Source: Candidatus Levyibacteriota bacterium
GTDB lineage: Bacteria > Patescibacteriota > Microgenomatia > Levybacterales > UBA12049
Assembly (NCBI GenBank): GCA_030651475.1
Contig: JAUSEW010000021.1
Location: forward strand, 1,898-65,897
Length of the DNA stretch: 64,000 nucleotides
Reading direction: 5' to 3'
A program made the position numbers and the translations under genes. Below the pieces are notes generated by a model. It searched no databases. It saw nothing but the letters and a program-made list of their open reading frames with translations, and was not told where the DNA came from. Shown here in pieces: positions 187 to 15,159 of the stretch; the first letter of the stretch is position 1, and each line of letters begins with the position of its first letter.

Positions 187-1908
187 ATGAGAAAAACTGC
201 CCTCTTATTTTTTGCTTTCTTTTTATTTCTCACTTTTCATTTCTCATCTCTCATTTCTCCAACATTTGCTCAAACCAAAGCTTCTCCTAGCGCAAATGTT
301 GAAGAAAATGTTCCCAATAATCTTCACAATTGGACGCAAACTGTGATGATTGAGGTAATGAGCGCACTAACCTGCCAGCTTGCGGGTGTTGACCCAATAA
401 ATTCCAAACAATCCTGTCTTGGAATTGATCAAGCAAGCGGAAAAATTGGATTTTTACCATCTCCTCAAACGGGAGGAGCAATTGGCTTTATGGGCAATAT
501 GATCGCAACACTTTATACACCTCCTCTTCATACCGGTGACTATTTCCGAGATCTTGCTTCAAACTTTGGCATAAACAAAAAGGCATACGCGGAAAGCGCG
601 GGAACGGGATTTCAGGGACTTACTCCTCTTATTGGTATTTGGTCTGCTTTTAGAAATATTGTCTATCTTTTCTTAGTAATAGTTTTTGTGGTTATCGGAC
701 TTGCTATCATGCTTAGAGTCAAAATTGATCCGCGGACTGTAATGACGATCCAAAACCAAATTCCCAAAATTATAATAGGAATACTTGTCGTTACTTTCTC
801 CTTCGCCATCGCAGGATTTTTAATTGATTTGATGTGGGTATCTATTTATTTGATATTCGGAATCTTCAGCGGAATTCCAGGTGTAGATGTTGGCAATCTT
901 AATCCTGCTGCTATTCAAGGACAAAACGCCTTACAAGCTGTAGGATTTGATGTTTTTAAAATAACCAGCGATGCATCTGGAGGAATAAAAGACATGATTG
1001 GATCTTTTCTTGGAATTCAAGCTGGTCCAGGATTTATCTTCAATCCCCTTGCCATTATTTGGGACATTGGAGACCCAAAACGCACTGGTAATATCATTAA
1101 CTGGCTTATTGACGGCATCAGTTCTAGCGCTGGTATTGCAGCATTCCTTAATGTAGCTAAGATCCCAATCGTTAACTCTGCAATTCCCGGAATACAAGAA
1201 ATTTTTGGAATTGGTCAAACTGCAGCAAAAACAGCTGTTGGATCCGCATTCTCTCTAAGCGTATTCTCAGGCACAGAGTTTTTGCTTAGAACTGGACTAC
1301 CATGGATTCTTGCATTCTTAATAATTTTTATCGCACTTCTGACTGCTTTATTCAGACTTTGGCTTGCACTAATTATGGCTTATGTTCATATTTTGATTGA
1401 TGTTGTTCTGGCGCCTTTTTGGATTATCGGCGGCATCGTCCCGGGAAGTCCGATTAGTCTTAGCGGATGGATACGGGATCTCGTTGCAAATTTAGCTGCA
1501 TTTCCTGCAGTAATCGGAATGTTTATGCTGGGAAAAGTGTTTATGGAAGCTTTTGGAAAATGTCCGGCAACAAACCCAAATTGTACAGCAGACAATTTTG
1601 TCCCTCCTCTTATAGGAAATCCCGGAGATCCAAGCCTAATTGGATCCCTAATTGGTCTTGGTATTATTCTAATGACTCCAAATGTCGTAAATATGCTGAA
1701 AGCCGCTCTCAAAGCACCAAAGATTGACACTGGCGGAATCGGCAAGGCATTTATGCCAGGCTTGGCTGTACCTGGACGGACAGTTGGCGGAATAGCAGGA
1801 CTCGCATTAGGTACAGCATACGAAAAAGGAGCTCTTGAGAAAGGGTTACCAGCAGGAGAAAGAGCACCTCTTGGAAAATTCCTTAGATCATTTGGATTTA
1901 TGAGATAA
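187..1908 (+). CDS. Polytopic membrane protein, TrbL/VirB6-like (T4SS inner-membrane component) candidate
   Basis: N-terminal signal peptide (MRKTALLFFAFFLFLTFHFSSLISPTFAQ). A ~130-aa soluble segment is followed by at least six hydrophobic helices and a Gly-rich C-terminus. It sits in the T4SS-like cluster with VirB4 and pilins. The family assignment is inference from topology and context. Confidence 0.5.
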   Translation: MRKTALLFFAFFLFLTFHFSSLISPTFAQTKASPSANVEENVPNNLHNWTQTVMIEVMSALTCQLAGVDPINSKQSCLGIDQASGKIGFLPSPQTGGAIGFMGNMIATLYTPPLHTGDYFRDLASNFGINKKAYAESAGTGFQGLTPLIGIWSAFRNIVYLFLVIVFVVIGLAIMLRVKIDPRTVMTIQNQIPKIIIGILVVTFSFAIAGFLIDLMWVSIYLIFGIFSGIPGVDVGNLNPAAIQGQNALQAVGFDVFKITSDASGGIKDMIGSFLGIQAGPGFIFNPLAIIWDIGDPKRTGNIINWLIDGISSSAGIAAFLNVAKIPIVNSAIPGIQEIFGIGQTAAKTAVGSAFSLSVFSGTEFLLRTGLPWILAFLIIFIALLTALFRLWLALIMAYVHILIDVVLAPFWIIGGIVPGSPISLSGWIRDLVANLAAFPAVIGMFMLGKVFMEAFGKCPATNPNCTADNFVPPLIGNPGDPSLIGSLIGLGIILMTPNVVNMLKAALKAPKIDTGGIGKAFMPGLAVPGRTVGGIAGLALGTAYEKGALEKGLPAGERAPLGKFLRSFGFMR

Positions 1909-1914
1909 AATAAT

Positions 1915-4900
1915 CTACTTACTGTCTTTAAAGCTGGATTTTCCTATCATGTAAGTCTCTCCAATAGCTGATAACAATAAATAAAGAAGCAATCTAAATC
2001 CAAATCTTTTCGCAGTATCCCCGGCATTAACCTCTAAGAGATCTTCTAGATCATTGTAGAATTTATGCGATTTCTTTTCGTCTTTTTCAAGTTCTTCTCC
2101 CCACTCTTTAATTTTGTATTTTTTAAAGTCGTCCTCGGATGAATACTTTTTGGCTTCTTCCATATACTCTTCCGACAAGTCACTTTCTAAAAATGCTTTC
2201 GTTTTTTCTCGCATGTCTTCCCTTACTTTACTGATACTAGAAGACAGATATCCACGCAGATGATCAAGGTGCCCCCTTAATTCATCCCTGCTCATTGCCT
2301 TAGCTTGAGGTCCAAAGATTCTTTGAACATCAGATATCGAAACTCTACCCAAAGAAGTAGTTCCAATTATGTCCCACACCATATCCACTTTTGAAAGATT
2401 TAGAAATGTTCCTATTGTATACCTCAAACATTCAGCTTGACCTCTTGCACCAAGCCCATTATAAGATCCCGCAGAAGTAGCAAATTTTATAGCTGCGCCT
2501 GTTTTCTTTTCTATATCTTCATCTCTAATAAACTCAAGTAAAGAGTTCCCAGCCGTAGCTGCATTGCCAGTGTCATTCCATGACCTTGCCAAAGTGTCGC
2601 CGCCGGCGCCGGCTTCTCCAATCATCTTAGAAAGAGGAACATATCCAAGCTTGGATACTCCAAGCTCATCAACGCTGTCAAATTTTTCATCCTCCAATTT
2701 ATCCAGCAAAATATCGTCGATTATAATTGACCTTGTATATATATCTGCAAACTCATTATCTACTAACAAATCGTCTACGAGTTTCTTGTTGAAAATATAT
2801 TCCTGCATTTTTTTAGACAATTTTGCCAACATCTCCCCGCTCCCATTCCCTTTTATGCTATCTACCATTTTTTTCTGCTCAGTAGTCAAATCAGACAAAT
2901 TAATCTGTGTTGGTGTCTGATTGCCTTTTCCATCTTTAAGATCGAACCCTTCTTGTCTTAACAATCCAATTATTGACCCGTATTTTATTTTGAACTTATC
3001 GTAAACCGTAAGATCCCTTCCTCGCCCTCCATCTTCGCTTTCAGGTCTGTTAGCTTCCTTTTCTGTGACTGTGAGATTTAATTCGGGATCTATCCCAACC
3101 ATTTCATCGTATAGCGCCTTGACCCTGTCTCCTTTCCTTTCCCTAAATAACCTAATTATTTCTTCAGGTCTATAATTCTTAATCTTTCCCCATATTCCTT
3201 CTCGGGTTTTCCTTGTTTTATCATTCCCCTTCTCATCTTTTAAGGAAAGTTGATCTTGTCCGGAAAGCCTTAGCCTCATAAATAGAGCGAAATCTTCAGC
3301 TCTTTTTTTTGCCAAAAATATTTTCCTTCCCTGATCGGATTTTAATTGCTGATATTCCTTGAGCTCCTCCTTATTTAACAGCTCTTTATAAGGTTTTCCC
3401 TGAAAGGTCGAAGCTTCAAATCTTTGCTCCAATGCCTGAATTACTCCCTCTATGCGCCACCCAGAAGAGAAAAAGTCAGGAACAGCAAAGAGGTCTCTAA
3501 AAAGTCTTTTTCCCAAATCTATCTTTTGCTGTCTGGTAAGTTCTTTCCCGCTCTCTCCTTGAATCTTCTTTTGCTCTTTTAGATAGGTCTCCGCAATATC
3601 CAACTTTATTCTGTCAACAAATTCTTCCTGCTCAGGACTGTACATATCAAATTTCCCAAACAGCAACTCCTCCATATTGTAGACATTCAGCGGCCCTATT
3701 GGATCTGAGCGATAGCGACCGCCGTCTTTAAGTAAATATTTTCCCCTTGAAACTATAACGCCCATTCTTTGAGAAGAAACAAAAACATCATAAGCTGTTC
3801 TTACTATTCTAGTAATATCTCCATTTACTTTTTTTATCCTTTTTATCCTACCCAATCTTTCTAATTTCTTATTCGCCTCTGCCCTCTCGACATCTGTTAG
3901 TTTCCCAGCCAACGCCTCCCCTATTGTCTTTTCATCCCTCTTGATCTTTAAATCCGTCATCTCCTCATCTCGGGTTGCTGATATGAAATCAGCTTGATAC
4001 TCGGGCTTTTTCGCTATATTGCTTAGGTCATCAAAGCCTCCTTTTCCATTTTTTGCCAACTCCAACTGCTCCTCAATCAATGCTTTTTGTACTTTTAATG
4101 CGTCTTCAAGCATGACATGGTGCCTTTTGTTACTCCAAAGCCTAGTTCCTTCCAATAAATCTTGAAATCTGTTAAACATTGCCCCTACTTTACCTTGCTC
4201 CAATGCCATTCCCAATAATAGACCGTGTGCTCTAAGTTGCCCTGCCGCTCCCTTAACTTGCTCTAGGTCTTTGTACCCAATCGCCGTTCTCATTTGTAAA
4301 AGATGTAGGCGAACAGTCGACTCAGCGATAAAGGACTTTAAGTGCTCCGGATTAGAAGCATTAATAAGATCAATTGCATAAGATATTTTGTTTTGCGTAT
4401 TTTGAATCAGCGGTGAGCTTAGTTCCTGCCCCTCTTCGGCCAGCGCGTATACATGATCAAACTGCCCATTCAGCCATTCCATTGGCGTTGTCATAAGCGC
4501 ATCCATCTCCTCTTTCATAAGAGATAAGCCAAATCTGTAGGTTATATCCTGCTTTCCCTGAAATTTCGCCTGCGCCCTTTCCCCAATCTCTTTTTCCTCA
4601 ATTAGTCTTTTCTTAATTCTAGCTATGGCAATCTGCTTTTCGGCAGGATTAACACCTACGAGCTTACTGATGCTATTCAAAGCATCCAGGAACACATTCA
4701 AAGAAGGCTGTACTCCCACGTCAAGCGCATTATTCATTGCTTCCATTTCTGCAACAATTGCAGGATCACTAATTACTGCTTTATCAGCGGCATCTTCTGC
4801 TCCGGCAGGTGACACAGGAGGGGCTGGAGATTCTTCTGCACCAGGAGCATCTGCTCCCCCCATAATTGGACCAAGTCCTCTTTTGATCATTTCCCTTTTA

Positions 4901-5172
4901 ACATACTCCTCCTCAAAAGTAGGAGTTTTCCCTTTATTTGCTTCTTCCCAAGCTTTTCTAGCCACAGTTTGTCTTTCCGCAGAAACAGGTTTTTTCATGC
5001 CTGATCTTGAAGCTTGAGGGGCTTCGAAATTTGTTGGTTGTGAATTAGGAGGCGTATCGGATTTTCCTTCCATAAAAATCTTTCCATCCTTAGAATACCC
5101 TTCTCGTGCTTGTGTTGTCAACTCACGAGTTGATGCTGAGTTTTGTCGAAGCATCAAATCAAATTCTTTCAT
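1915..5172 (-). CDS. Large (1085 aa) charged/coiled-coil-rich hypothetical protein with a C-terminal hydrophobic tail anchor
   Basis: Long uninterrupted ORF, rich in K/E/D/R, with no N-terminal signal peptide. The last ~25 residues form a hydrophobic segment (FRLLLYLLLSAIGETYMI). It lies in an apparent operon with the AAA ATPase upstream. I recognise no motif. Confidence 0.55.
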   Translation of the reverse strand: MKEFDLMLRQNSASTRELTTQAREGYSKDGKIFMEGKSDTPPNSQPTNFEAPQASRSGMKKPVSAERQTVARKAWEEANKGKTPTFEEEYVKREMIKRGLGPIMGGADAPGAEESPAPPVSPAGAEDAADKAVISDPAIVAEMEAMNNALDVGVQPSLNVFLDALNSISKLVGVNPAEKQIAIARIKKRLIEEKEIGERAQAKFQGKQDITYRFGLSLMKEEMDALMTTPMEWLNGQFDHVYALAEEGQELSSPLIQNTQNKISYAIDLINASNPEHLKSFIAESTVRLHLLQMRTAIGYKDLEQVKGAAGQLRAHGLLLGMALEQGKVGAMFNRFQDLLEGTRLWSNKRHHVMLEDALKVQKALIEEQLELAKNGKGGFDDLSNIAKKPEYQADFISATRDEEMTDLKIKRDEKTIGEALAGKLTDVERAEANKKLERLGRIKRIKKVNGDITRIVRTAYDVFVSSQRMGVIVSRGKYLLKDGGRYRSDPIGPLNVYNMEELLFGKFDMYSPEQEEFVDRIKLDIAETYLKEQKKIQGESGKELTRQQKIDLGKRLFRDLFAVPDFFSSGWRIEGVIQALEQRFEASTFQGKPYKELLNKEELKEYQQLKSDQGRKIFLAKKRAEDFALFMRLRLSGQDQLSLKDEKGNDKTRKTREGIWGKIKNYRPEEIIRLFRERKGDRVKALYDEMVGIDPELNLTVTEKEANRPESEDGGRGRDLTVYDKFKIKYGSIIGLLRQEGFDLKDGKGNQTPTQINLSDLTTEQKKMVDSIKGNGSGEMLAKLSKKMQEYIFNKKLVDDLLVDNEFADIYTRSIIIDDILLDKLEDEKFDSVDELGVSKLGYVPLSKMIGEAGAGGDTLARSWNDTGNAATAGNSLLEFIRDEDIEKKTGAAIKFATSAGSYNGLGARGQAECLRYTIGTFLNLSKVDMVWDIIGTTSLGRVSISDVQRIFGPQAKAMSRDELRGHLDHLRGYLSSSISKVREDMREKTKAFLESDLSEEYMEEAKKYSSEDDFKKYKIKEWGEELEKDEKKSHKFYNDLEDLLEVNAGDTAKRFGFRLLLYLLLSAIGETYMIGKSSFKDSK

Positions 5173-5266: not shown

Positions 5267-6427
5267 CTAGATGAAGTCAAAGAAATTTTCCGTAGTAATG
5301 AGTTTTACCTTTGTGCTATATTGTTTCGTAAAAGAGACCGCTCCCCGGCTGATGCGGCCGTCTGAATATTTAAACTCGTACGCGGCAAGTTTTTGACTTG
5401 GAAGGGCTTCTATGTAATCTACCTCTGCCCCGCCGTAACTTCTCCAGAAATATAAAGAAACAGGTTTTGCCTGATTTGCAAACTTTTTCATGCGTTCTAT
5501 GAAAAGGAAGTTTTCCCATAAAAAACCGACATCTCTGCGAATTGCGACAGGATTAAAATCTCCGATAAGAGCATTTCGTATACCAAGATCGGAAAAATAT
5601 ATTTTATAGTTTCTTCCTATTTCACGTCTTGGATTTTTAGAAAATGGATGCACGCGAACTATAACGAACGCTTTTTCAAGAATATCTAAATACGATACGA
5701 CTGTTTTTCTGTCAATTTTAAGCCGTGTTGCCAGCTCGTTTTCATTTACTTCCGATCCTACTTGGTAGGCAAGAGCTTTTGCGAGATCCTTTACCGCTTG
5801 TGAGTTTCTAATTCTTTGAAACGATAGAATATCTGCAAACAGGTAGCTTTCTACAATTTTCCTAAGCATAAGCTCTTTGTTCTCGGGATGATTCTCTAAA
5901 TAAATCTCGGGATAAAATCCATACAAAAGGGTTTGCGGCAAGAGAGACTGAGCATATTCTTTCTGTAAAATTTTATTTTGGGAATTCGCTGAATAAGACA
6001 AGACTTCACTAAAAGAAAGAGGAAAAAGAGTAAAGTCAATATATCTTCCCGTTAGGGCATCACTCATTTTATTTTTTAACTCAAAACTCGATGAGCCCGT
6101 AACGATAATCGTATTGTTTGGAAAATTGTCGTAGAGTATCTTGAGGGTTAGACCCGGATTCTCAAGTCTTTGCGCTTCGTCAATTAGAAGAGCTTGAGTG
6201 TTTTTCAAAAGTTTTTCAAGTAAAACTTTGGATGTGGTATTCACAGCGTTTCTCTCCTCATCACTGTCGCAATTAAGATAAAGAGTTTTCTTGCCCGATT
6301 CGGCTAATTTCTGCTGTATCTTTTTTATAATGGTTGTTTTGCCTACTTGCCGCGCACCAAGTATAAGAATAATTTTCTTAAGTTCCAGGCTCTTTAAAAT
6401 AGCTTCTTCCATTAATCTTGGGATCAT
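5267..6427 (-). CDS. AAA+ ATPase (COG1373 / DUF4143-type)
   Basis: Walker A ILGARQVGKTTI near the N-terminus, Walker B-like LLIDEAQRL and a ~390-aa length typical of this archaeal-type ATPase family. Confidence 0.75.
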   Translation of the reverse strand: MIPRLMEEAILKSLELKKIILILGARQVGKTTIIKKIQQKLAESGKKTLYLNCDSDEERNAVNTTSKVLLEKLLKNTQALLIDEAQRLENPGLTLKILYDNFPNNTIIVTGSSSFELKNKMSDALTGRYIDFTLFPLSFSEVLSYSANSQNKILQKEYAQSLLPQTLLYGFYPEIYLENHPENKELMLRKIVESYLFADILSFQRIRNSQAVKDLAKALAYQVGSEVNENELATRLKIDRKTVVSYLDILEKAFVIVRVHPFSKNPRREIGRNYKIYFSDLGIRNALIGDFNPVAIRRDVGFLWENFLFIERMKKFANQAKPVSLYFWRSYGGAEVDYIEALPSQKLAAYEFKYSDGRISRGAVSFTKQYSTKVKLITTENFFDFI

Positions 6428-6523
6428 GTTCCTATTATTAGCACTAATTTAGGAATTTGTCAAGTGCTAGTAAACAAATACCGTATACTTGCAAAAATTC
6501 CCAAAACTGTCTACGATTGAAGA

Positions 6524-7768
6524 GTGAGAAAGGTAATATTTTTATTTTCAAGCCTACTTATTTCCTTCTTATTCTTCGTATCGTGGAATAATAAAGCTTA
6601 TGCGGAGAATTGCCCTCTAAGTATTGATCGAACAACGCCATTCCCTCTTGATTTTAATGAGGACATAGTAATTAAAGGTAATTGTTTCACTAGCGGAAAA
6701 ACATACACTATCTTAGGATATCCTTCAAAGATAGACCCTTCTCCTGGAGAGTATTTTAAGTACTCCATAGATACAAGACAATATTCAGATCCAAATAGTA
6801 TTACCGCACGACTCAATCTGACAAAACCTACCTTTTACCCAATAGGTAGCCTTAATCCTGGACCGTGGATTATAAAAGTCTGCACTCAAGATGTTCTTCC
6901 CCAATGTGGAGAAACAGGTAGAATCGTAGGGACTATTAATATTAACGTTTCTGCAGTTTCTGCAGTTTCTGCACCTACTCCAACACCAATTCCATCGAAT
7001 TTACCAAAAGTTGCTATGTTTCCTTCACGATGTAAGTATCAATCTGATGAATCTTTAGAATTGACGCTCTCTGATCTTTTACCTAAAACTACATATCGTT
7101 GGTGGTGGTGGCAACCAGGAATCTTTCAAGGAGGAGATATAGCCGCAAGAGCATTTACTACATATCAACAGAACGGAACAGTGGCAAAAGCAACGATAGA
7201 AGGGAAAGAAACGCAACCAACTGGTAGCCGCACGCTTTGTGTTGATGTTGAAGGATTTGGCGTTGCTCGTTGTATTCCTGGTTCACAAAATTCAGCAACG
7301 CTACAATTTACGTTTGGTCCGCCGCCAGTTGATGGTTCTGCTTGTGTCACAACAGCAGCAGGAGGACAAGTTCCGCAGAATATACCTACTCCAACGCCCA
7401 TCATCCCAACACCTATATGCGCGAAGGGTGCCATAACTCCCATAAAAGAATCTGTAAATTCAACAAATGTTATTGGCTATACTTGTTCTGCCGTAGATAC
7501 TGGACTTGGCATTGATATCAAAACTAATCCCGAAGATTTGGTGAAGAGTGTTTTTGGAATAATTTTAAGCCTTTCCGGCGGAATTGCTTTAATTCTAATT
7601 ATTATTTCCGGCTATCAACTTATCTTTTCCCAGGGAAATCCCGAACAGGTTAAAGCAGCCCAAGAACAGCTGACTTCCGCAGTTGTCGGGCTTTTGTTTA
7701 TAATATTCTCATTGGTAATTCTACAAATAATCGGAGCAGACATTTTGAAAATCCCAGGCTTTAAGTGA
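6524..7768 (+). CDS. Secreted protein with C-terminal VirB2/TrbC-like pilin domain (pilin-ectodomain fusion)
   Basis: GTG start and a signal peptide. A ~330-aa Cys-containing N-terminal domain carries PTPTPIP linkers and a W-rich patch. The C-terminal ~70 aa (GIILSLSGGIALILIIISGYQLIFSQGNPEQVKAAQEQLTSAVVGLLFIIFSLVILQII) aligns with the four downstream pilin paralogs. Confidence 0.6.
   Translation: MRKVIFLFSSLLISFLFFVSWNNKAYAENCPLSIDRTTPFPLDFNEDIVIKGNCFTSGKTYTILGYPSKIDPSPGEYFKYSIDTRQYSDPNSITARLNLTKPTFYPIGSLNPGPWIIKVCTQDVLPQCGETGRIVGTININVSAVSAVSAPTPTPIPSNLPKVAMFPSRCKYQSDESLELTLSDLLPKTTYRWWWWQPGIFQGGDIAARAFTTYQQNGTVAKATIEGKETQPTGSRTLCVDVEGFGVARCIPGSQNSATLQFTFGPPPVDGSACVTTAAGGQVPQNIPTPTPIIPTPICAKGAITPIKESVNSTNVIGYTCSAVDTGLGIDIKTNPEDLVKSVFGIILSLSGGIALILIIISGYQLIFSQGNPEQVKAAQEQLTSAVVGLLFIIFSLVILQIIGADILKIPGFK
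6947..6973 (+). repeat. In-frame tandem repeat (GTTTCTGCA)x3 encoding VSAVSAVSA inside ORF 6524-7768
   Basis: Three exact 9-bp units seen directly. Confidence 0.9.
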
Positions 7769-7830: not shown

Positions 7831-8199
7831 ATGGCGTATATAGCAACTTACAAAGAATTAATTGTATGGAAAAAGGCAATTGAATTAGTAAAAGAAATTT
7901 ATCTTTTGACAGAAAAATTTCCCAGATCGGAGATTTACGGAATAATTTCCCAAATGCGGCGAGCGGCTGTATCTATCCCTTCAAATATTGCCGAAGGTTA
8001 CGGGAGAAAATCCCCCAAAGAATATGCGCAATTTTATTCCATAGCCTACGGTTCTGGTCTTGAGCTTGAAACACAACTTATTATTAGCAAAGACCTTAAG
8101 TTCGTTAAATTACAAGATTTTACAAAAAGCGATAATCTATTAACAGAGGTCTTAAAAATGTTACGCTCAATGTTGTATACTATGAGAACTAAACGCTAG
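7831..8199 (+). CDS. Four-helix-bundle protein (23S rRNA intervening-sequence protein family, PF05635-like)
   Basis: 122 aa. The sequence ...ELIVWKKAIELVKEIYLLTEKFPRSEIYGIISQMRRAAVSIPSNIAEGYGRKSPKEYAQFYSIAYGSGLELETQL... matches the characteristic family motif. Confidence 0.85.
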   Translation: MAYIATYKELIVWKKAIELVKEIYLLTEKFPRSEIYGIISQMRRAAVSIPSNIAEGYGRKSPKEYAQFYSIAYGSGLELETQLIISKDLKFVKLQDFTKSDNLLTEVLKMLRSMLYTMRTKR

Positions 8200-8224: not shown

Positions 8225-8569
8225 ATGAAGCTTGCACAATTTTCCTTACCAGGTTACCCAGATATAAAAGTTCCGAGCGATATACAAAATTTATCAGGAG
8301 GAGCTTATGGCGGCAGTTTAATTACAACAGCCCTGGCTATCCTTTTTGTTTTTGGAATTGTTTTGACAATTATTCTTCTAATCTATTCCGGCATCCAATG
8401 GGTCACATCCGAAGGAGACAAACAGAAGATACAGGCCGCACGATCAAGGCTTATTTATACGATAGTTGGATTTTTGATAATTGCCGGTTCACTTGTTATT
8501 GTAAGTGTAATCGTAAGATTACTTGGCGGAGATCCTAAATTTTTCTTAAATACCTCAAATACCCCTTGA
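8225..8569 (+). CDS. VirB2/TrbC-like T4SS pilin paralog
   Basis: Small protein with a TM helix followed by IYSGIQWVTSEGDKQKIQAARSRLIYTIVGFLIIAGSLVIV. The motif is shared with ORFs 8602, 9068, 9578 and the C-terminus of 6524. Confidence 0.6.
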   Translation: MKLAQFSLPGYPDIKVPSDIQNLSGGAYGGSLITTALAILFVFGIVLTIILLIYSGIQWVTSEGDKQKIQAARSRLIYTIVGFLIIAGSLVIVSVIVRLLGGDPKFFLNTSNTP

Positions 8570-8601: not shown

Positions 8602-9012
8602 ATGAGGAAATCTTTAGGCTTTATTAGCGCTTTATCATTATATGCTAGCTCTGCCTTTTTAGCTATAGCACAAGGAGCAGCACCTAAGGGAGATGTTTCA
8701 ATACCGATAGTAGTTCCAACTGGCGCCCTTCCCTTAGACCTAGATATCGGTAAATTACCTCAATTTATCATAACCCTTCTTTTTATAGTTGGTGTTATTA
8801 TTGCTATCGCATTTTTAATTTACGGAGGTATTAAATGGGTTATGTCAGGCGGAGACAAAGCAGGAGTTGAGGCAGCCAGAAATCATATTGTTGCAGCCAT
8901 TATCGGGTTGGTAATAATTGCAGCAGCCTTCTTTATTATTCAGGTTGTTTTTAGACTTCTTGGAACATCTCTCGACATAAGCACGCTAACCATTCCCACC
9001 CTTAAACAATAA
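8602..9012 (+). CDS. VirB2/TrbC-like T4SS pilin paralog
   Basis: Signal peptide, then LIYGGIKWVMSGGDKAGVEAARNHIVAAIIGLVIIAAAFFII. It is near-identical at nucleotide level to the next paralog over ~110 bp. Confidence 0.6.
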   Translation: MRKSLGFISALSLYASSAFLAIAQGAAPKGDVSIPIVVPTGALPLDLDIGKLPQFIITLLFIVGVIIAIAFLIYGGIKWVMSGGDKAGVEAARNHIVAAIIGLVIIAAAFFIIQVVFRLLGTSLDISTLTIPTLKQ

Positions 9013-9067: not shown

Positions 9068-9568
9068 GTGATACCGCTACCTATTATTCCTCCTCCTGGA
9101 AGCATTATTAATGCATCTTTGGAGAATATTCCCCAATTTATTATCCAGCTTATTTTTGTAATCGGAATTATTATTGCTATAGTTTTCTTAATTTATGGCG
9201 GTATTAAATGGGTACTATCGGGTGGAGATAAAACTGCTGTTGAAGCAGCAAGAAATCATATTGTTGCAGCAATTGTCGGGTTGGTAATAATTTTAGGATC
9301 CTTCCTTATCTTCTCTTTGGTTTTCCAGCTTCTCGGAGCGCAAAACCCGATTCTTGGTCGATCTTTGTGCATCCCTACCCTTAAAGATCCATTCTGTTTC
9401 CCTGCAGTTGCACCAACCCCTTCGGCAGGCTCAGGGCAAGCCGGAACTTCCTCTGTTAACCCATCTTTAAGCCCTACGCCTGCGAAGTTTCCGACAGTTT
9501 CCGGAGGATCGAATAATTCCTCTTCTTCAAAACAAAATCAAACTGACAAAACCAAAGGAGGATTATAA
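9068..9568 (+). CDS. VirB2/TrbC-like T4SS pilin paralog with a Pro/Ser-rich C-terminal tail
   Basis: GTG start. LIYGGIKWVLSGGDKTAVEAARNHIVAAIVGLVIILGSFLIF is followed by a low-complexity PTPSAGSGQAGTSS... tail. Confidence 0.55.
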   Translation: MIPLPIIPPPGSIINASLENIPQFIIQLIFVIGIIIAIVFLIYGGIKWVLSGGDKTAVEAARNHIVAAIVGLVIILGSFLIFSLVFQLLGAQNPILGRSLCIPTLKDPFCFPAVAPTPSAGSGQAGTSSVNPSLSPTPAKFPTVSGGSNNSSSSKQNQTDKTKGGL

Positions 9569-9577
9569 TACTTAAGT

Positions 9578-9889
9578 ATGACTCTTAAGGAATGCTTTAC
9601 TGGCGTTGATAAGGTAGGAACCCTTAACTGCATCCCTTATCTTTTCGAAAATGTTGTTACCGCAGCATTTCTTTTCGCCGGCATAATTGCGCTCATTTTT
9701 ATCATTCTTTCCGGGATTAAATTTTTAATGTCAGGCGGAGATCCAAAACAGCTCGAAGGAGCCAAAAATACCTTGACTTATGCTATCTTGGGATTTATTT
9801 TAATTCTTCTTTCTTTCGCAATCCTAAATTTTATCTCCGGAATTACCGGTGTCCCCTGCATTAAAGAATTCGGTTTTGGCAATTGCTAA
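9578..9889 (+). CDS. VirB2/TrbC-like T4SS pilin paralog
   Basis: ILSGIKFLMSGGDPKQLEGAKNTLTYAILGFILILLSFAIL. The C-terminus carries two Cys residues. Confidence 0.55.
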   Translation: MTLKECFTGVDKVGTLNCIPYLFENVVTAAFLFAGIIALIFIILSGIKFLMSGGDPKQLEGAKNTLTYAILGFILILLSFAILNFISGITGVPCIKEFGFGNC

Positions 9890-9952: not shown

Positions 9953-11173
9953 ATGGAGAATCATCCTATTCCCCAGGACGTAACTGGATTTCAGTTCAAG
10001 CTGATTGGGGATATGACCATCAAACAATTCGCCTATCTTATAACCGGCGTAATTATGGCGTGGATATTTTTCAGTCTGTCGATAACGTACTTTATTAAAA
10101 TTCCCTTTGCTTTTTTCTTTGGGCTATTTGGAGTTAGTCTGGCGTTTCTACCAATTGAAGGAAGACCAATGGATGTAATGATTGGAAATTTCCTCAAAGC
10201 TCTTTCTTCCCCAACCCAATACGTTTATAAAAAAACAGGCGTTCCTGTCTGGTCTCAAATACCTATTTATAGAAAAACTTTGCAGGGTCCAAGTTTGCAA
10301 ACCGTGAAACCGCAGGCAAGAGTTTTCCTGCAAACATCAATGAACATTCCCAAAAATGATTTAGACAAAAAAGAATTGAGTTTTTTCCAGTCTCTTTTTG
10401 GTCAGCAAAACGGTTCTTTCCCGCAAGCTCCTCAAAACACTCAAGCCGGATCTCCGGTTATAATAACTATGCACGATGATTCCAAGAAAGAAGAGCCGAA
10501 AAAAGAACCCGTAGTTGCTAATACGCAAACGGAGCCTATCGCAGAAAATGTTCTTCAGGAAAAAGCAGCTCTTTTGGAACGAGAGCTTCAAGCCGCCAAA
10601 GAGCAAGAAGCAAATTTACAAAAACAAGCTGTCCCAACCCAAGCTATTCACGAAAAAACCTTGGAATTGGAGAAGCAGCTTGCAGAGGTTCTTACGCAGA
10701 AAGAGCAGCTTACCGGCCAATTGATAAACTTACAGCAAAAACTGGATCAGCAAAAAAAGCAATTTTTTACTCCGGGAGTTGTAACTTCTCCAAAGATAGA
10801 AACCAAAAATGTAAAAAGTATCCCTGGACCCATGGGCAAAAGCGTTGGTCTTCCCATAACACCAGATGTTCCAAACCTTATAACCGGAATTCTCAAAAAT
10901 CCGAGAAATATGCCATTGCCTAATATTCTGGTTGAGGTAAAAGACAGCGAGGGAAATCCTGTCCGGGCATTTAAAACCAATTCCTTAGGACAATTTGCAT
11001 CAGCTACTCCTCTTCTGAACGGCACCTATACAATGGAATTTGAAGATCCCAAAGGAGAAAATAAATTTGACTTTATAGAAATAAAAGCCAATGGTGAAAT
11101 AATCTTACCAATAGAAGTTATCTCTATTGACACACGGGAAGAATTAAGGAAATCTCTTTTCGGAGAAGTATAG
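9953..11173 (+). CDS. PrgI/VirB3-like membrane protein with long coiled-coil and C-terminal beta-rich extension
   Basis: The N-terminus FQFKLIGDMTIKQFAYLITGVIMAWIFF... plus two TM helices resembles PrgI-family (VirB3-like) proteins. It is followed by a Q/E/K/L-rich coiled coil (LQAAKEQEANLQKQ...LINLQQKLDQQKKQ). It lies immediately upstream of VirB4. Confidence 0.45.
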   Translation: MENHPIPQDVTGFQFKLIGDMTIKQFAYLITGVIMAWIFFSLSITYFIKIPFAFFFGLFGVSLAFLPIEGRPMDVMIGNFLKALSSPTQYVYKKTGVPVWSQIPIYRKTLQGPSLQTVKPQARVFLQTSMNIPKNDLDKKELSFFQSLFGQQNGSFPQAPQNTQAGSPVIITMHDDSKKEEPKKEPVVANTQTEPIAENVLQEKAALLERELQAAKEQEANLQKQAVPTQAIHEKTLELEKQLAEVLTQKEQLTGQLINLQQKLDQQKKQFFTPGVVTSPKIETKNVKSIPGPMGKSVGLPITPDVPNLITGILKNPRNMPLPNILVEVKDSEGNPVRAFKTNSLGQFASATPLLNGTYTMEFEDPKGENKFDFIEIKANGEIILPIEVISIDTREELRKSLFGEV

Positions 11174-11176
11174 TTT

Positions 11177-11812
11177 ATGAAAAAATCTGCCCAAAAGACA
11201 CAGGCAACAACGCAAAAATTCATAGAGATACAGGATATTTCGGACAATATCGCCATACTTCCTTACGGCAATGCCTGTCTTATCATTGAAGTTATTGCTA
11301 CCAATTTCTCTCTTTTTTCCAAAGAAGAGCAGAATGCTAAAATTTTTGCCTATTCAACTTTACTCAATTCACTTTCGTTTCCTATCCAAATATTTATTTT
11401 AAGTAAAAGAGTTGACATATCGTCATATATTAAACTGTTGGACTGGGAAGAGAAGAAAACACAAAATGAGAAATTAGCCCATCAAATAGGCCTTTATAAA
11501 GAATTTGTCCGGGAGCTGGTTAAGGTAAACACTGTTTTGGATAAAAAGTTTTACATAGTTATTCCCTACTCATATCTTGAAAAAGGCCCAATTCAGCAAG
11601 GATCTTTTGCCGCTCAAGCCAAAACAGCTCTTCTAAGCAAAGCCCAAGTATTGCATTCCCAGCTCGCAACACTTAATCTTCGCGCCAGAACTCTTGCCAA
11701 AGAAGAATTAATAAATCTTTATTACGAAATTTATAATGCGGACTTGGGCACATCTTCAAATCCGCAAGAAAATGTAAGTACCGTATTTGTTAAAGGAGCA
11801 AAAACAATATGA
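11177..11812 (+). CDS. Probable N-terminal (membrane-proximal) domain of VirB4/TrbE encoded as a separate ORF
   Basis: 211-aa soluble protein whose stop overlaps the VirB4 ATPase start (ATGA at 11809-11812). The combined length (211+604 aa) matches full-length VirB4 (~800 aa). Inference from size and context, not from a recognised motif. Confidence 0.4.
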   Translation: MKKSAQKTQATTQKFIEIQDISDNIAILPYGNACLIIEVIATNFSLFSKEEQNAKIFAYSTLLNSLSFPIQIFILSKRVDISSYIKLLDWEEKKTQNEKLAHQIGLYKEFVRELVKVNTVLDKKFYIVIPYSYLEKGPIQQGSFAAQAKTALLSKAQVLHSQLATLNLRARTLAKEELINLYYEIYNADLGTSSNPQENVSTVFVKGAKTI

Positions 11813-13623
11813 CACCTGTGAATAACCTTAACCCAAGAAATCTTTCTTTGGAATCTTTGGAAAAAGGGATAAATTCTTTGGCTGATATTATCGCTCCTTC
11901 TTCCGTTGAAATAGATTTTAATTTCATCAGAGTGGGAGAAAGGTTTTATAAAACCTTTTTTGTTGTCGGGTATCCCCGATTTGTTTCTTCAAACTGGCTT
12001 TCTCCGGTTATCGATTTTGATCATTCTTTAAATATTTCGATGTTCATTTATCCGACATCTTCTTCTGATGTTTTAAACGATCTTCGGCGGAAAATCGCAG
12101 AAATGGAAGCATCTATTTCTTCCGAGGTTGAGTCGGGACGATCTCCTGATCCCAAAATAGAAGCAGCCTTAGAAGATGCACTTGGACTTCAACAGGAACT
12201 TGCAAGAGGAGTTGAAAGGTTTTTTCAATTTAGTTTATACATTACTATTTCTGCCGATAGCTTAAAAGATTTGGACGAAGCAGGGAAAAAACTTAGCTCA
12301 ACACTTTCTTCTCTTCTTATAGTTCCAAAAATCGCAACTCTTCAAATGGAAGACGGGTTCAAATCTTCTGTCCCGCTTGGCATAGATAAGCTTTATATAA
12401 CCAGAAATATGGACACAACCTCTTTGGCCTCAACTTTTCCCTTTACTTCTGCCATGCTAACTCAAGACAAAGGAGTTTTGTATGGCATAAATCAGCAAAA
12501 TGGATCTTTGATTATTTTTGACAGATTCTCTTTGGAAAATGCCAATGAGGTTGTGCTGGGAAAATCCGGATCGGGAAAATCTTTCTTGATAAAACTGGAG
12601 GCAATGCGGCAATTTATGTTTGGGACAGAAATAATAATAATCGATCCCGAAGGAGAATACGAAAGCCTGACAAAAACTCTTGGCGGAGAATATGTCGCCT
12701 TTACAACATCTTCTCCCATTAAGATAAACCCGTTTGATCTTTCCGGATTATATGAAGAGGGAGAAAATGAACTCGGACTTAAAATACTATCGCTTCGCGG
12801 GCTTTTGAAAATTGCCCTTGGGGAAATGAATGCCGCGCAAGATGCGATACTGGACAGAGCTCTGGTTGAAACATACAAAAATAAAGGCATAACTACAGAT
12901 CCTGCAACGCAAAAAAAAGAGCCTCCCCTTATGGAAGATCTCTACAAAACGCTTTCCCAAATAAAAGATGACAGCTCCCATGACTTAACACTCCGTTTGG
13001 AAAAATTTATTAAGGGAAGCTTAAGCGGAATATTTAATCAGCAATCCAACTTTAATATCCAAAATCCTCTGACAATTTTCTCTCTTAAAGGGCTTGAAGG
13101 AGAACTAATGCCTATTGCCATGCACATAGTTTTGGATTTTGTCTGGACAAGGGTCAGAAAAGATCTCAAAAAAAGACTGCTTATTTTGGATGAGGCTTGG
13201 TACATAATGAAATATCAAGATTCCGCGTCTTTTGTGTACGGGGTTGCAAAAAGGGCCAGAAAATATTATCTTGCTCTTACCACAATAACGCAGGATGTTC
13301 AGGATTTCCTTACAACCGATTACGGAAAGGCAATTTTGTCTAACTCGTCTATTCAAATTCTTCTTAAACAAAGTCCTACCGAAATCGATTCTATCGCAAA
13401 AGTTTTCTATTTTTCCTTAAGAGAAAAGGAATATTTACTTGCGTCAGGCGTTGGGGAAGGATTGTTTTTCGCAGGTCTTGCCCATGTTGGGCTAAAAGTT
13501 GTTGCGGCACCATTTGAAAAAGAAATAGTCACGTCAAATCCCGAAGATCTCAAGAAAATGCAGGAAGAAATATCGCAAAAAACAACCGAGCCACCAATTG
13601 TTAATCAAACAAAGAGCGTCTAA
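11809..13623 (+). CDS. virB4: VirB4/TrbE-family conjugative/T4SS ATPase
   Basis: Walker A VLGKSGSGKSF, Walker B LLILDEAWYIM and an overall VirB4 C-terminal ATPase architecture. Confidence 0.8.
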   Translation: MTPVNNLNPRNLSLESLEKGINSLADIIAPSSVEIDFNFIRVGERFYKTFFVVGYPRFVSSNWLSPVIDFDHSLNISMFIYPTSSSDVLNDLRRKIAEMEASISSEVESGRSPDPKIEAALEDALGLQQELARGVERFFQFSLYITISADSLKDLDEAGKKLSSTLSSLLIVPKIATLQMEDGFKSSVPLGIDKLYITRNMDTTSLASTFPFTSAMLTQDKGVLYGINQQNGSLIIFDRFSLENANEVVLGKSGSGKSFLIKLEAMRQFMFGTEIIIIDPEGEYESLTKTLGGEYVAFTTSSPIKINPFDLSGLYEEGENELGLKILSLRGLLKIALGEMNAAQDAILDRALVETYKNKGITTDPATQKKEPPLMEDLYKTLSQIKDDSSHDLTLRLEKFIKGSLSGIFNQQSNFNIQNPLTIFSLKGLEGELMPIAMHIVLDFVWTRVRKDLKKRLLILDEAWYIMKYQDSASFVYGVAKRARKYYLALTTITQDVQDFLTTDYGKAILSNSSIQILLKQSPTEIDSIAKVFYFSLREKEYLLASGVGEGLFFAGLAHVGLKVVAAPFEKEIVTSNPEDLKKMQEEISQKTTEPPIVNQTKSV

Positions 13624-13640: not shown

Positions 13641-13898
13641 ATGCCCGAACAAGAAGAAAAAAAACGAGGACATACTGGATTTATCAACGGAATCTTTAAT
13701 ACCCCAGGTACAGTAAAAACTGTATCGAGGTTAGGAAAAGTTATATTTAGTGCAGGTCCCGAAGTATGGATTGTTGTTGGGACTATTGTCGGAGTAGCCT
13801 TGCTCACGCTTCTAGTTTTATTTACTGTTACAGCATCCGTACCCATTCCCCAAACCCCTCCTACCCCCACAATCACTCTTCCCACACCAACCCCCTAA
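13641..13898 (+). CDS. Small membrane protein (one TM helix, Pro/Thr-rich tail), hypothetical
   Basis: 85 aa with TM segment WIVVGTIVGVALLTLLVLFTV, co-directional with and 17 bp downstream of virB4. An alternative antisense ORF 13625-13885 was rejected. Confidence 0.3.
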   Translation: MPEQEEKKRGHTGFINGIFNTPGTVKTVSRLGKVIFSAGPEVWIVVGTIVGVALLTLLVLFTVTASVPIPQTPPTPTITLPTPTP

Positions 13899-15025: not shown

Positions 15026-15108
15026 ATTGAATTAAGATTTATTTATTTGTAGTTGTAGTAGTCTATATGGAAAAGTGGAAAAAAGCAAGAGGGGGAAGCT
15101 AAATAACA

Positions 15109-15117
15109 TGTGGATAA
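15109..15117. promoter_or_regulatory. Perfect DnaA box (TGTGGATAA = reverse complement of TTATCCACA) in the dnaA-dnaN intergenic region
   Basis: Exact 9-mer seen at 15109-15117. The surrounding region is AT-rich. Confidence 0.7.
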
Positions 15118-15159
15118 CCTGTTGAAAAGAATGGGGGTAAAAGATTAAAAAAATAAAAC

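Follow-up and report, generated by a model that had tools for sequence, protein, structure and literature searches.

A large part of bacterial diversity belongs to the Patescibacteria (CPR), whose members seem to live on other cells. To our knowledge, no adhesin has been found for their type IV secretion system (T4SS). T4SSs with arrays of VirB2-like pilin genes near oriC have been published for this group (PMC12102498), the arrays comprising 2–11 pilins near virB4 (Quinonero-Coronel et al. 2025). The pilins of the published arrays have been described as small paralogues of divergent sequence, possibly providing antigenic or host versatility. Pilin genes are essential in S. epibionticum (Ca. 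Southlakia epibionticum ML1) (PMC10633639); the T4SS together with its pilin array is essential in the one genetically tractable Patescibacterium, and it is essential for epibiotic growth in Saccharibacteria. A PrgB-like adhesin was not detected in Patescibacteria, and the supplementary table of the same study enters PF18895 matches as 'VirB2' without lengths (PMC12102498). Assembly of PF18895 proteins into filaments is treated in the literature as a possibility only (PMC12857230).

The locus described here lies in a stretch of 64,000 nucleotides from a Candidatus Levyibacteriota bacterium, hereafter called the window. It is a chromosomal Patescibacterial T4SS locus adjoining dnaN/dnaA, and its gene order, pilins-PrgI-TrsD-VirB4-dnaN-dnaA, agrees with the published one (PMC12102498). 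The Pfam family, the partners (PrgI, TrsD, VirB4) and the chromosomal site beside dnaN/dnaA are those of the published PF18895 arrays, as is the monoderm MPF-FATA-like machine without an adjacent relaxase or T4CP; indeed, neither of the latter was found beside the locus. The present array differs from the published ones in that its first gene encodes an Ig-like ectodomain of ~310 aa, N-terminal to the pilin module and swapped between lineages, and in that it forms an ordered set of four orthogroups with no recent paralogue expansion. We found no description of such a long form in the searchable literature. A first-pass annotation of the sequence had proposed that the gene encodes an unusual minor or tip pilin with a receptor-binding function.

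Gene order and family membership of the pilin array

The gene of the long-form pilin (6524..7768, + strand) encodes 414 aa and starts with GTG, the earliest possible start downstream of an in-frame stop codon. Its product is 100% identical to the NCBI MAG protein Q7R31_01860 (Candidatus Levybacteria), and homologues open with the same MRK... N-terminus. The signal peptide noted in the first pass was recovered by hydropathy and motif analysis. It is of the Sec type (6524..6604, + strand; aa 1–27), consists of MRK, a hydrophobic core and the predicted cleavage site AYA↓E, and is kept in homologues, which leaves a predicted mature protein of 387 aa (aa 28–414). A conserved region upstream of the gene (6440..6523, + strand) probably represents promoter and leader.

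The C-terminal module (7529..7765, + strand; aa 336–414) comprises two hydrophobic helices (336–368 and 373–403) with the polar loop SQGNPEQVKAAQEQ and ends in a conserved ...ILKIPGFK. It matches PF18895 (T4SS_pilin) with 34.9 bits at a cut-off of 26.6 (aa 337–403, profile positions 6–71 of 71), while the four short ORFs downstream reach 28.8–39.2 bits, all above the gathering score; each of the five array proteins covers ~60–66 of the 71 profile positions. Invariant positions in both helices and in the loop are shared by all five, the long-form module keeps every residue common to the short pilins, and an HMM built from long-form C-termini matched exactly these five ORFs in the window. AF2 predicts a helical hairpin (pLDDT about 75–87), and hydropathy agrees on the two-helix layout. 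The first-pass annotation had assigned this C-terminus and the four short paralogs to one module and had named a generic TM helix as the alternative; as judged from the sequences, the similarity is real homology that extends over both helices and the loop.

The earlier designation pilin needs to be made more precise: the protein is a T4SS VirB2-like pilin (PF18895) in a VirB4/PrgI locus and not a type IV pilus or sortase pilin. A type IV pilin was rejected, as the class III signal peptide (G↓F/M-T-L-x-E) is absent and the hydrophobic module is a C-terminal hairpin; a search of the N-terminus revealed neither a prepilin motif nor a lipobox, and a lipoprotein was rejected on the latter ground. 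A sortase-dependent pilin or adhesin was rejected as well, since there is no LPXTG-like motif and the protein ends with ...ILKIPGFK directly after helix 2. The precursor length of 414 aa lies outside the usual PF18895 range of roughly 100–170 aa. PF04956 (TrbC/VirB2) did not match the long form at E < 0.01 but was matched by 2 of 88 related long forms (E = 2e-4). An hhalign comparison with A. tumefaciens VirB2 was colinear with the mature pilin at E = 0.014 and a probability of 3%; comparison with F TraA returned nothing, and a PDB profile search found no pilin.

The short pilins, all PF18895 members on the + strand, are A (8225..8569, 114 aa), B (8602..9012, 136 aa, with signal peptide), B' (9068..9568, 166 aa) and C (9578..9889, 103 aa). 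A, B and C belong to position-specific orthogroups, and B' is a tandem duplicate of B (76% nucleotide identity over 207 nt). On the same strand follow the PrgI (VirB3-like) membrane protein (9953..11173), which is conserved in synteny and carries a C-terminal CarboxypepD_reg-like beta-sandwich, a TrsD/TraC-like protein (11177..11812) equivalent to the N-terminal part of VirB4 (NCBIfam TrsD; VirB4_plasma positions 94–284; PF26593 matched in orthologues), and the VirB4-like T4SS ATPase (11809..13623; Pfam P-loop_TraG and CagE_TrbE_VirB; NCBIfam conju_CD1110, 388 bits). Upstream of the array, p573 (187..1908, + strand) is a polytopic membrane protein of 573 aa with a signal peptide, 6 TM-like segments and no match in Pfam. 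It is present upstream in 60 of 85 loci, is hypervariable and, by its incongruent identities, recombinant; we consider it a candidate for a divergent VirB6-like partner. A 1085-aa protein (1915..5172, - strand) has no known domain and is conserved in synteny, though likewise divergent.

Between the long pilin and the four short ones lies a gene for a four-helix bundle of family PF05635 (23S_rRNA_IVP, '23S rRNA IVS', bAvd-like; 7831..8199, + strand), which the first-pass annotation had left out. About 35 of 80 related loci have such a gene, though not at a fixed position, and it is probably not part of the T4SS machine. Its bAvd-like character prompted a reading of the locus as a DGR target, which was rejected because the window contains no template/variable repeat, no RT and no second ectodomain copy; repeats of at least 25 nt linking the long gene to its surroundings were not found either. 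The only RT-related match is an RNase H/RVT_3 gene at 20028–20450. Silent cassettes of the pilS type were excluded for the 64-kb window by tblastn and the family HMM; when tblastn and the ectodomain family HMM were used to search it for a second ectodomain-like copy, only the gene itself was returned.

Ectodomain architecture

Structure prediction, as suggested in the first pass, gave an AF2 model of the ectodomain with two beta-sandwiches of the IPT/TIG type of Ig-like folds. The first, D1 (6605..6946, + strand; aa 28–141), contains Cys30, 54, 120 and 128. It is followed by the in-frame tandem repeat (GTTTCTGCA)x3 at the boundary to the linker (6947..6973, + strand; aa 142–150, VSAVSAVSA) and by Pro/Thr linker 1 (PTPTPIPSNL; 6974..7003, + strand), in which P153 and P161 are nearly invariant and pLDDT is low. 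The second sandwich, D2 (7004..7333, + strand; aa 161–270), contains a conserved Y-x-WWW strand and Cys170, 239 and 250. A neck (7334..7528, + strand; aa 271–335) with Cys274, 299 and 321, linker 2 (PTPTPIIPTP) and low pLDDT leads to the pilin module; its pre-helix motif (T326, G329, T334) is conserved. The model thus depicts two putative disulfide-rich IPT/TIG-type Ig-like units on Pro/Thr linkers plus a Cys-containing neck. Descent of D1 and D2 from an internal duplication is unsupported (hhalign E = 0.23, no detectable sequence homology).

The sequence features listed in the first pass are all present where it had placed them, among them the PTPTPI motif, which occurs twice (aa 151 and 288), and the WWWW patch (aa 193–196), in which W194 is nearly invariant in the homologue alignment; Y191, just ahead of the patch, is invariant. 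The ectodomain is Cys-containing as stated, but 'more than ten' Cys residues was a slight overcount, the protein having exactly 10, at positions 30, 54, 120, 128, 170, 239, 250, 274, 299 and 321. Nine of them are conserved, each in 26–32 of 32 homologues; in place of Cys250, most homologues appear to use a Cys in a nearby column (consensus 'NC' beside N256).

The in-frame (VSA)x3 repeat noted earlier is perfect, too: TRF reports 3.0 copies of the 9-nt unit (GTTTCTGCA) with 100% match and a score of 54. Because homologues have a single VSA copy at this site, the repeat is, on the alignment, a recent private expansion within a linker. A perfect repeat that is private to this genome might be taken for a contingency switch that controls the protein by phase or length variation. 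However, slippage by a unit of 9 nt, a multiple of three, cannot switch the reading frame, and there are three copies only, which sit in a flexible linker. The suggested check for variation in repeat number, made on JGI metagenomes with exact flanks and a variable gap, found no (VSA)n variants, and the long-form protein is alone in its 90% identity cluster. A switch function of the repeat is hardly credible.

Neither Pfam nor NCBIfam matched the long form outside the pilin module, and a PDB sequence search with the ectodomain yielded nothing significant (best E = 0.002, an uncharacterised 95-aa protein). Structural comparison ranked domains without catalytic function highest (Ig-like/IPT-TIG, MG or S-layer), with enzyme chains among the lower-ranked matches. 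Thus, the match to a common periplasmic enzyme family that the first pass had named as refuting did not emerge from Pfam, NCBIfam, PDB or the top structural matches; a lectin or other recognised binding site was not found in the ectodomain either. Ig-like/IPT domains often act as spacers. The homologue search with the ectodomain alone, likewise suggested in the first pass, covered 1.84 billion representatives and matched only 41 clusters, in each case within the N-terminal part of a protein whose size and layout are those of a pilin fusion.

The neck bears on the possibility that the ectodomain is a pro-region or chaperone-like domain, which would be removed by cleavage in the neck to leave a short mature pilin. 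Classical TrbC/VirB2/TrhA pilins are proteolytically processed (PMC12037004), the neck is common to long forms with other ectodomains, whose matches span aa ~280–413, and a Peptidase_C39-like protein is encoded downstream of VirB4 in some related loci. However, no peptidase of this type adjoins the locus in the 64-kb window. Moreover, the ectodomain is predicted to be a well-folded tandem Ig-like unit with putative disulfides and conserved Cys and Trp residues, and other long forms have fn3 or other beta-sandwiches in its place, a kind of swap unexpected for a disposable pro-region. We regard removal of the ectodomain as very improbable.

Array organisation and probable ectodomain exchange in relatives

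Relatives of the long form are encoded in at least 201 species-level genomes of Levy- and Daviesbacteria. The long form heads the array in every one of about 80 loci, which come from different species; there is usually one copy of it, with three or more short pilins behind it. PrgI and VirB4 accompany the array in these loci as they do here. In 141 homologues, the pilin module is located at or near the C-terminus without exception, with no more than 2 aa behind it in about 130 cases, while the ectodomain varies from 140 to 556 aa, with mostly even Cys counts; protein lengths reach 824 aa. Domains that could be recognised in other long forms were limited to fn3 and CarboxypepD_reg. The epithet 'unusual' given in the first pass is therefore apt in relation to classical VirB2/TraA pilins, whereas the fusion is the norm in this lineage.

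The array positions (long form and three short pilins) behave as orthogroups, with best matches at the same position in 75–100% of comparisons. Such a fixed order of four orthogroups speaks for a heteromeric assembly in which the subunits differ in role rather than for simple antigenic variation. The long-form module is the most conserved array member (median identity 59% versus 41–49% for the short pilins), which would also suit a major pilin that runs along the whole filament, alone or alternating with short pilins, and covers it with a 'bottle-brush' coat of Ig-like domains. In a C5 pilus with a rise of 12 Å, the area per subunit amounts to 687 Å^2 at r = 45 Å and 915 Å^2 at r = 60 Å, which is similar to the end-on footprint of an Ig domain; the neck would provide 65 flexible residues. 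By this back-of-envelope geometry, an ectodomain on every subunit is possible if the domains are at least 60 Å from the axis; as a fully decorated filament is sterically possible, a tip location does not follow from sterics. However, three conserved position-specific short orthogroups in every locus speak for distinct roles, known VirB2/TraA pilins are small and tightly packed, and there is one long gene here, as is usual in relatives, against three or four short ones. A filament decorated throughout is improbable in our view.

The earlier description of a pilin core fused to a large variable ectodomain was borne out by comparisons across the family. BLAST clustering separated the ectodomains into 29 clusters, all on an equally conserved module, as module identity is 67% between and 65% within clusters; family-wide, median identity is 68–70% for the module and 25–33% for the ectodomain. 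Comparison of the window with two relatives (L006 and L007) revealed an island of divergence: VirB4 is 96–98%, TrsD 93–94% and the module 92–95% identical, versus about 40–45% for the ectodomain (D1 and D2 37–50% at the amino acid level). In nucleotides, the mature ectodomain is 50–60% identical to close relatives, and the signal peptide plus 5' region about 80–90% identical to L006 and L007; the signal peptide has 70–78% amino acid identity to close relatives. The window is nearly identical to L007 from ~70 nt upstream through the signal-peptide codons, and immediately ahead of the GTG, ~25 nt are the same in all three loci. At fourfold sites, identity is 46–48% in the ectodomain versus about 70–80% in flanking genes (Fisher p = 0.004 and 0.0002). 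Loci with 87–89% identical VirB4 have no detectable ectodomain similarity. Because the ectodomain has diverged between more conserved flanks and can be unrelated at 87–89% VirB4 identity, this pattern points to replacement of the ectodomain as a cassette.

Such replacement bears on the rival view that the long form is neither pilus subunit nor adhesin but a membrane-anchored component of the envelope. Its hairpin would stay in the membrane or at the base of a T4SS stalk, and its Ig-like domains on Pro/Thr linkers would form a sheath or scaffold around the channel that spans the cell wall or S-layer. PrgI, encoded in the same operon, also has a beta-sandwich (CarboxypepD_reg) ectodomain, and no pilus attributable to a T4SS has been seen in a Patescibacterium so far (PMC12857230). 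A purely structural scaffold, however, ought to change slowly and in step with the machine, whereas the ectodomain is replaced between genomes in which VirB4, TrsD and PrgI are 85–98% identical; in addition, the module retains all residues common to the short pilins. We consider a role in the envelope rather unlikely. p573 and the 1085-aa protein have diverged as much as the ectodomain, and the mosaic could also stem from a regional recombination hot spot, or from avoidance of phages or predators, rather than from host recognition.

Proposed role and comparison with known systems

Our preferred interpretation, to which we give an even chance, is that the protein is the leading, long-form member of the VirB2-like array, a modular T4SS pilin whose displayed contact or adhesin domain can be exchanged. 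Once exported, the hairpin would span the membrane in the manner of VirB2-type pilins, its two ends outside and its loop in the cytoplasm, until the VirB4/TrsD-PrgI machine extracts it and it co-assembles with short pilins A, B and C to form a T4SS pilus or stalk. In the F-pilus, the pilin termini lie on the outer surface. In conjugative pili, the loop of the helix-loop-helix faces the lumen (PMC12037004). Being attached at the N-terminus of the hairpin, the ectodomain would project from the filament surface and, if the long form is loaded first, it would be placed at the distal end as an exchangeable contact (adhesin) module directed towards the host cell, filling the role of VirB5 or PrgB-type adhesins in other T4SSs. 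Recombination would let lineages swap this module and retain both the pilin module and the machine. The location at the tip, or as a minor pilin, and the receptor binding proposed in the first pass are inferred from topology, gene order and evolutionary pattern.

More tentatively, long-form PF18895 proteins may constitute undescribed 'modular T4SS pilins' that act as host-recognition determinants, their conserved VirB2-like hairpin docking to the machine or pilus and the ectodomain forming a recombining specificity cassette with a co-varying p573 and the ~1000-aa protein. If true, this cassette would determine the host cells to which a Levybacterium or Daviesbacterium can attach and which it can exploit. 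For the contact element, a pilin-family protein with a folded, predicted disulfide-rich ectodomain is a concrete candidate, and the exchanged ectodomain marks where host specificity might be encoded.

Classical conjugative pilins, i.e. VirB2 (T-pilus), TraA (F), TrbC (RP4) and TrhA (H-pilus), likewise have a signal peptide, two hydrophobic helices and a polar loop, and they share with the long form the predicted N-out/C-out topology and genes beside VirB3 and VirB4. However, their mature forms measure about 65–75 aa and lack a globular domain, whereas ~308 aa are fused N-terminally in the long form; a sequence relationship is at best remote, and the bacterium that encodes the long form has a monoderm envelope. 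We know of no earlier VirB2-family pilin with a grafted globular module, so that the long form would be the first.

The likeness to VirB5/TraC/TrwJ lies in the proposed role: distal, surface-exposed, target-recognising and loaded ahead of the major pilin. VirB5 makes up the tip of the pilus and precedes VirB2 in loading, and VirB2 itself is recruited by VirB3 and VirB6 (PMC12624023). Identity with a VirB5-type tip adhesin was rejected, as VirB5 families had no match (Pfam, NCBIfam) and the ectodomain is all-beta. VirB5, a soluble and all-helical protein of the periplasm, assembles as a pentamer on VirB6 and resembles the long form in neither sequence nor fold; the contact module of the long form, by contrast, would be covalently joined to a pilin hairpin.

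The five array modules also match the Mycoplasma ICE pilin-like families NF045849 (Mbov_0395) and NF045848 (MMCAP2_0566) consistently, with E values of 1e-4 to 4e-9 over the full 80-residue model, though with scores below the curated cut-offs. Both these proteins and the long form belong to monoderm MPF-FATA-type systems, but the former reside in mobile ICEs with conjugation functions, and none is known to us to carry an N-terminal Ig-like ectodomain.

In design, a parallel is offered by modular type IV pilins. PilB of the monoderm Streptococcus sanguinis carries a globular, adhesive vWA module grafted on a pilin (PMC8179133), and PilC is a further example (PMC9934059). These pilins belong to a different filament superfamily and have an N-terminal class III signal peptide, a single alpha1 helix and a C-terminal module, whereas the long form has its hairpin at the C-terminus and its module at the N-terminus, with a T4SS as assembly machine. 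Thus, the long form would extend the idea of the modular pilin from type IV pili to type IV secretion.

A conserved pilin module and its ectodomain

The window derives from the chromosome of a Patescibacterial (CPR) bacterium. Its long-form gene (6524-7768, + strand) has a 414-aa product; the same sequence is on record as a hypothetical protein (P0001) from a Candidatus Levybacteria MAG. All features listed in the first-pass annotation were recovered, namely a signal peptide of the Sec type (residues 1-27, with AYA|E at its end), Pro/Thr linkers (PTPTPI at aa 151 and aa 288), a WWWW patch (aa 193-196) and a perfect (GTTTCTGCA)x3 tandem repeat (nt 6947-6973) encoding (VSA)x3; the reported 'more than ten' cysteines number exactly ten. 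The triple repeat is private to this genome, with a single copy in homologues, and a switch based on repeat number is the least credible of the explanations considered here. Motif inspection of the protein revealed no lipobox, type IV prepilin motif or LPXTG.

The C-terminus has two hydrophobic segments and, as proposed, is a pilin-like module common to four short downstream ORFs. The module matches PF18895 (T4SS_pilin) at residues 337-403 with 34.9 bits (Pfam gathering score 26.6 bits), and short pilins A (8225-8569), B (8602-9012), B' (9068-9568) and C (9578-9889), all on the + strand, match the same family at 28.8-39.2 bits. Residues in helix 1, the loop and helix 2 are invariant among all five modules, an HMM built from long-form C-termini retrieves exactly the five pilin ORFs in the window, and the AF2 model folds the module into a helical hairpin (helices 336-368 and 373-403). 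The homology thus spans the whole pilin unit, ruling out similarity limited to a generic TM helix. NCBIfam gave consistent sub-threshold matches to the Mycoplasma-ICE 'pilin-like conjugal transfer protein' family, and PF04956 (TrbC/VirB2) was touched by 2 of 88 related long forms. Direct comparisons with classical VirB2 gave no statistically firm link. The C-terminal module is classed with VirB2-like T4SS pilins on the strength of its Pfam assignment and of the published structure-based pilin annotations for Patescibacterial T4SSs (PMC10633639, PMC12857230). An identity as type IV pilus pilin was rejected, since the module belongs to PF18895 and the prepilin motif is absent.

The full-length AF2 model (pLDDT 77.6) and an ectodomain-only model (pLDDT 81.7) coincide in their layout, with a Pro/Thr linker between two beta-sandwiches, D1 (about aa 30-142) and D2 (about aa 162-265), and a Cys-containing neck of low AF2 confidence (aa 266-335) after D2. 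Outside the pilin module the long form has no Pfam or NCBIfam match, a PDB sequence search with the ectodomain gave no meaningful match, and D1 and D2 have no detectable homology to each other. In an alignment of 32 homologues, nine of the ten cysteines as well as Y191 and W194 are (near-)invariant; this would fit five extracellular disulfides. We are highly confident that the long form belongs to the VirB2-like T4SS pilin family and carries a tandem Ig-like ectodomain. That this ectodomain is cleaved off a pro-pilin appears very improbable.

Array order and locus context

In the loci retrieved, the pilin array opens with the long form, usually in single copy; at least three short pilins come next, and then PrgI, TrsD and VirB4 wherever the contig reaches. 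When 50 canonical 1+3 arrays among the related loci (L001-L085) were compared, the best match in another genome stood at the same array position in 100% of comparisons for the long form, 75% for A, 94% for B and 92% for C. As best matches keep their position, the array is an old, ordered set of four orthogroups rather than of recent paralogues, which suggests distinct structural roles of the pilins and argues for heteromeric assembly over the antigenic-variation reading in the literature. Median lengths along the array are 399, 111, 140 and 106 aa; of the four modules, that of the long form shows the highest conservation (median identity 59%, against 41-49% for short pilins). A fully decorated major pilin, in which the long form would run along the whole filament, is given a low probability.

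Within the window, B and B' stem from a recent duplication in tandem (207 nt at 76% nucleotide identity), and B' has gained a Ser/Pro/Gly-rich C-terminal tail of ~70 aa. The array also contains a gene for a PF05635 ('23S rRNA intervening sequence'/bAvd-like) four-helix bundle (7831-8199, +). About 35 of 80 related loci (e.g. L001, L002, L006, L009, L017, L031) carry one or two genes of this kind, whose place varies: they precede or follow the long pilin, lie on either strand, or stand ahead of PrgI. The gene comes without RT or DGR repeat and looks like a recurrently inserting small gene.

Downstream of the pilins, PrgI (VirB3-like; 9953-11173, +) continues through a long coiled-coil-like, Gln/Lys/Glu-rich linker into a C-terminal CarboxypepD_reg-like beta-sandwich and is hence a second membrane component of the operon with an extracytoplasmic Ig-like-type domain. 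VirB4 is split here and in all related loci examined: a TrsD/VirB4-N-terminal-like ORF (11177-11812, +), corresponding to positions 94-284 of the Mycoplasma VirB4 model, overlaps the ATPase ORF (11809-13623, +) by 4 nt. VirB4 is directly followed by dnaN and dnaA (13895-16527, -), and the minimum of cumulative GC skew lies at about 14-16 kb of the window; the T4SS locus therefore abuts the probable replication origin, as has been reported in many Patescibacteria. This arrangement matches that described for Patescibacterial T4SSs, which are MPF-FATA-like, often adjoin dnaA/dnaN and carry arrays of 2-11 VirB2-like pilin genes, especially abundant in Microgenomatia (PMC12102498). A VirD4/T4CP-like ATPase of 790 aa (60742-63114, +; TrwB_AAD_bind, T4SS-DNA_transf, TraG-D_C) is encoded outside the cluster, about 47 kb from VirB4, and no relaxase was found among the window ORFs scanned.

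Upstream, a polytopic 573-aa membrane protein (p573; 187-1908, +) with a signal peptide, about 6 TM-like segments and no Pfam match is conserved ahead of the pilins in 60 of 85 loci and could represent the 'missing' divergent VirB6 of Microgenomatia. Its relationships are incongruent with those of VirB4: it is 62-65% identical to its counterparts in L008 and L018, whose VirB4 is 75-77% identical, and only 45% identical in L007, whose VirB4 is 96% identical. Between p573 and the array lies a gene for a 1085-aa protein (1915-5172, -) without Pfam or NCBIfam match or TM segment; counterparts of 900-1240 aa occupy the same place on the opposite strand in many related loci and are dissimilar among close relatives (identity to L006 is about 55%). 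In 49 of 85 related loci, a gene for a Trans_reg_C (OmpR-type winged-helix) protein of ~445 aa is near the array; in the loci inspected it immediately precedes the long pilin. Its window homologue (23267-24565, +) is about 15 kb away, and the upstream site (5267-6427, -) holds an AAA_14/DUF4143 ATPase gene with homologues in only 3 of 85 loci, pointing to local rearrangement or insertion.

Divergence and exchange of the ectodomain

In comparison with its two closest relatives (L006 and L007), the window locus is conserved at the amino acid level in VirB4 (96-98%), TrsD (93-94%), PrgI (85-91%), the long-pilin module (92-95%) and most short pilins (84-90%; B, 62-65%; A, 45-90% against L007 from a partial alignment only). 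The signal peptide and ~70-nt 5' region retain about 80-90% nucleotide identity, whereas D1 and D2 drop to 37-50% amino acid and 50-60% nucleotide identity. At fourfold-degenerate sites compared within identical codons, identity is 46-48% in the ectodomain, about 63-80% in VirB4, TrsD and PrgI (VirB4 70-72%) and 59-71% in the module (Fisher, ectodomain versus VirB4 in L007, p = 0.004; versus PrgI+TrsD+VirB4 in L006, p = 0.0002). The ectodomain alleles are therefore older than their flanks, which indicates replacement by recombination and not only fast evolution in place. On its 3' side, the island ends at the junction of D2 and neck in L006 but at that of neck and module in L007. Neither a silent ectodomain copy nor a DGR-type repeat was found in the window.

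Among 29 loci with both genes, some pairs have VirB4 proteins 87-89% identical yet ectodomains without detectable similarity, and where VirB4 identity is 70-80%, ectodomains are similar by BLAST in only 5% of pairs, with modules 64% identical. A whole-protein search of 5.8 billion proteins returned 362 matches, with PF18895 in 120 of 120 among the matches listed; many cover only the last 22-30% of the long form at ~65% identity and have unrelated N-termini. The ectodomain alone matched 41 clusters among 1.84 billion representatives, every time N-terminally, in proteins of 258-519 aa. In 141 collected homologues the module sits at or near the C-terminus (tail <=2 aa in about 130), behind ectodomains of 140-556 aa that mostly have an even Cys number and form 29 BLAST clusters; median module identity is 67% between and 65% within clusters. 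The only recognisable domains in other long forms were fn3 and CarboxypepD_reg.

Relatives of the long form are encoded on 201 contigs of GTDB representative genomes, the informatively titled ones being Levybacteria, Daviesbacteria or 'Microgenomates'. Many GTDB or NCBI records with a clearly Levybacteria-type locus (L007, L011, L013, L015, L016 and others) are titled 'uncultured Gammaproteobacteria bacterium'; these are binchicken and SRP co-assemblies with evidently placeholder or wrong taxonomy.

A candidate contact element of the T4SS

Family membership, domain architecture, operon context, conserved array position, modular exchange and mosaic divergence are observed properties of the long form, from which a course of assembly may be sketched. 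Following Sec export and signal-peptide cleavage, the hairpin would adopt an N-out/C-out topology as in VirB2-type pilins. The VirB4/TrsD-PrgI machine would then recruit it, the known VirB2 recruiters being VirB3 and VirB6 (PMC12624023). Subsequently, the long form would co-assemble with pilins A, B and C. In the F-pilus structure, pilin termini are on the outside. As the loop faces the lumen in solved conjugative pili (PMC12037004), the N-terminal ectodomain would project from the filament. Gene order and the analogy with VirB5 loading suggest that the long form sits at the tip, although sterics give no proof of it.

A hypervariable ectodomain carried by a conserved machine is what one would expect of a specificity determinant. 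Patescibacterial T4SSs are without VirB5, no PrgB-like adhesin was detected in them (PMC12102498), and for the contact element the long form is the obvious candidate. Ca. Southlakia epibionticum cannot grow epibiotically without its T4SS and pilins (PMC10633639). Overall, we give about even weight to the reading that the long form is a modular T4SS pilin which co-assembles with the short pilins and displays an exchangeable contact domain. An envelope-spanning scaffold, in which the ectodomain would not project from a filament, is the strongest competitor, though a rather unlikely one.

Patescibacterial T4SSs with VirB2-like pilin arrays are already known; PMC12102498 treats the pilins as small, its supplement gives 'VirB2' only, without lengths, and the other papers searched are silent on pilin size. 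Neither the long form itself, its fixed first position, the four-orthogroup array structure nor cassette-like ectodomain replacement was described in the open-access papers and bioRxiv searched. In function, the long form comes closest to VirB5 tip proteins and to the modular type IV pilins known from S. sanguinis (PMC8179133), both of which belong to different families.
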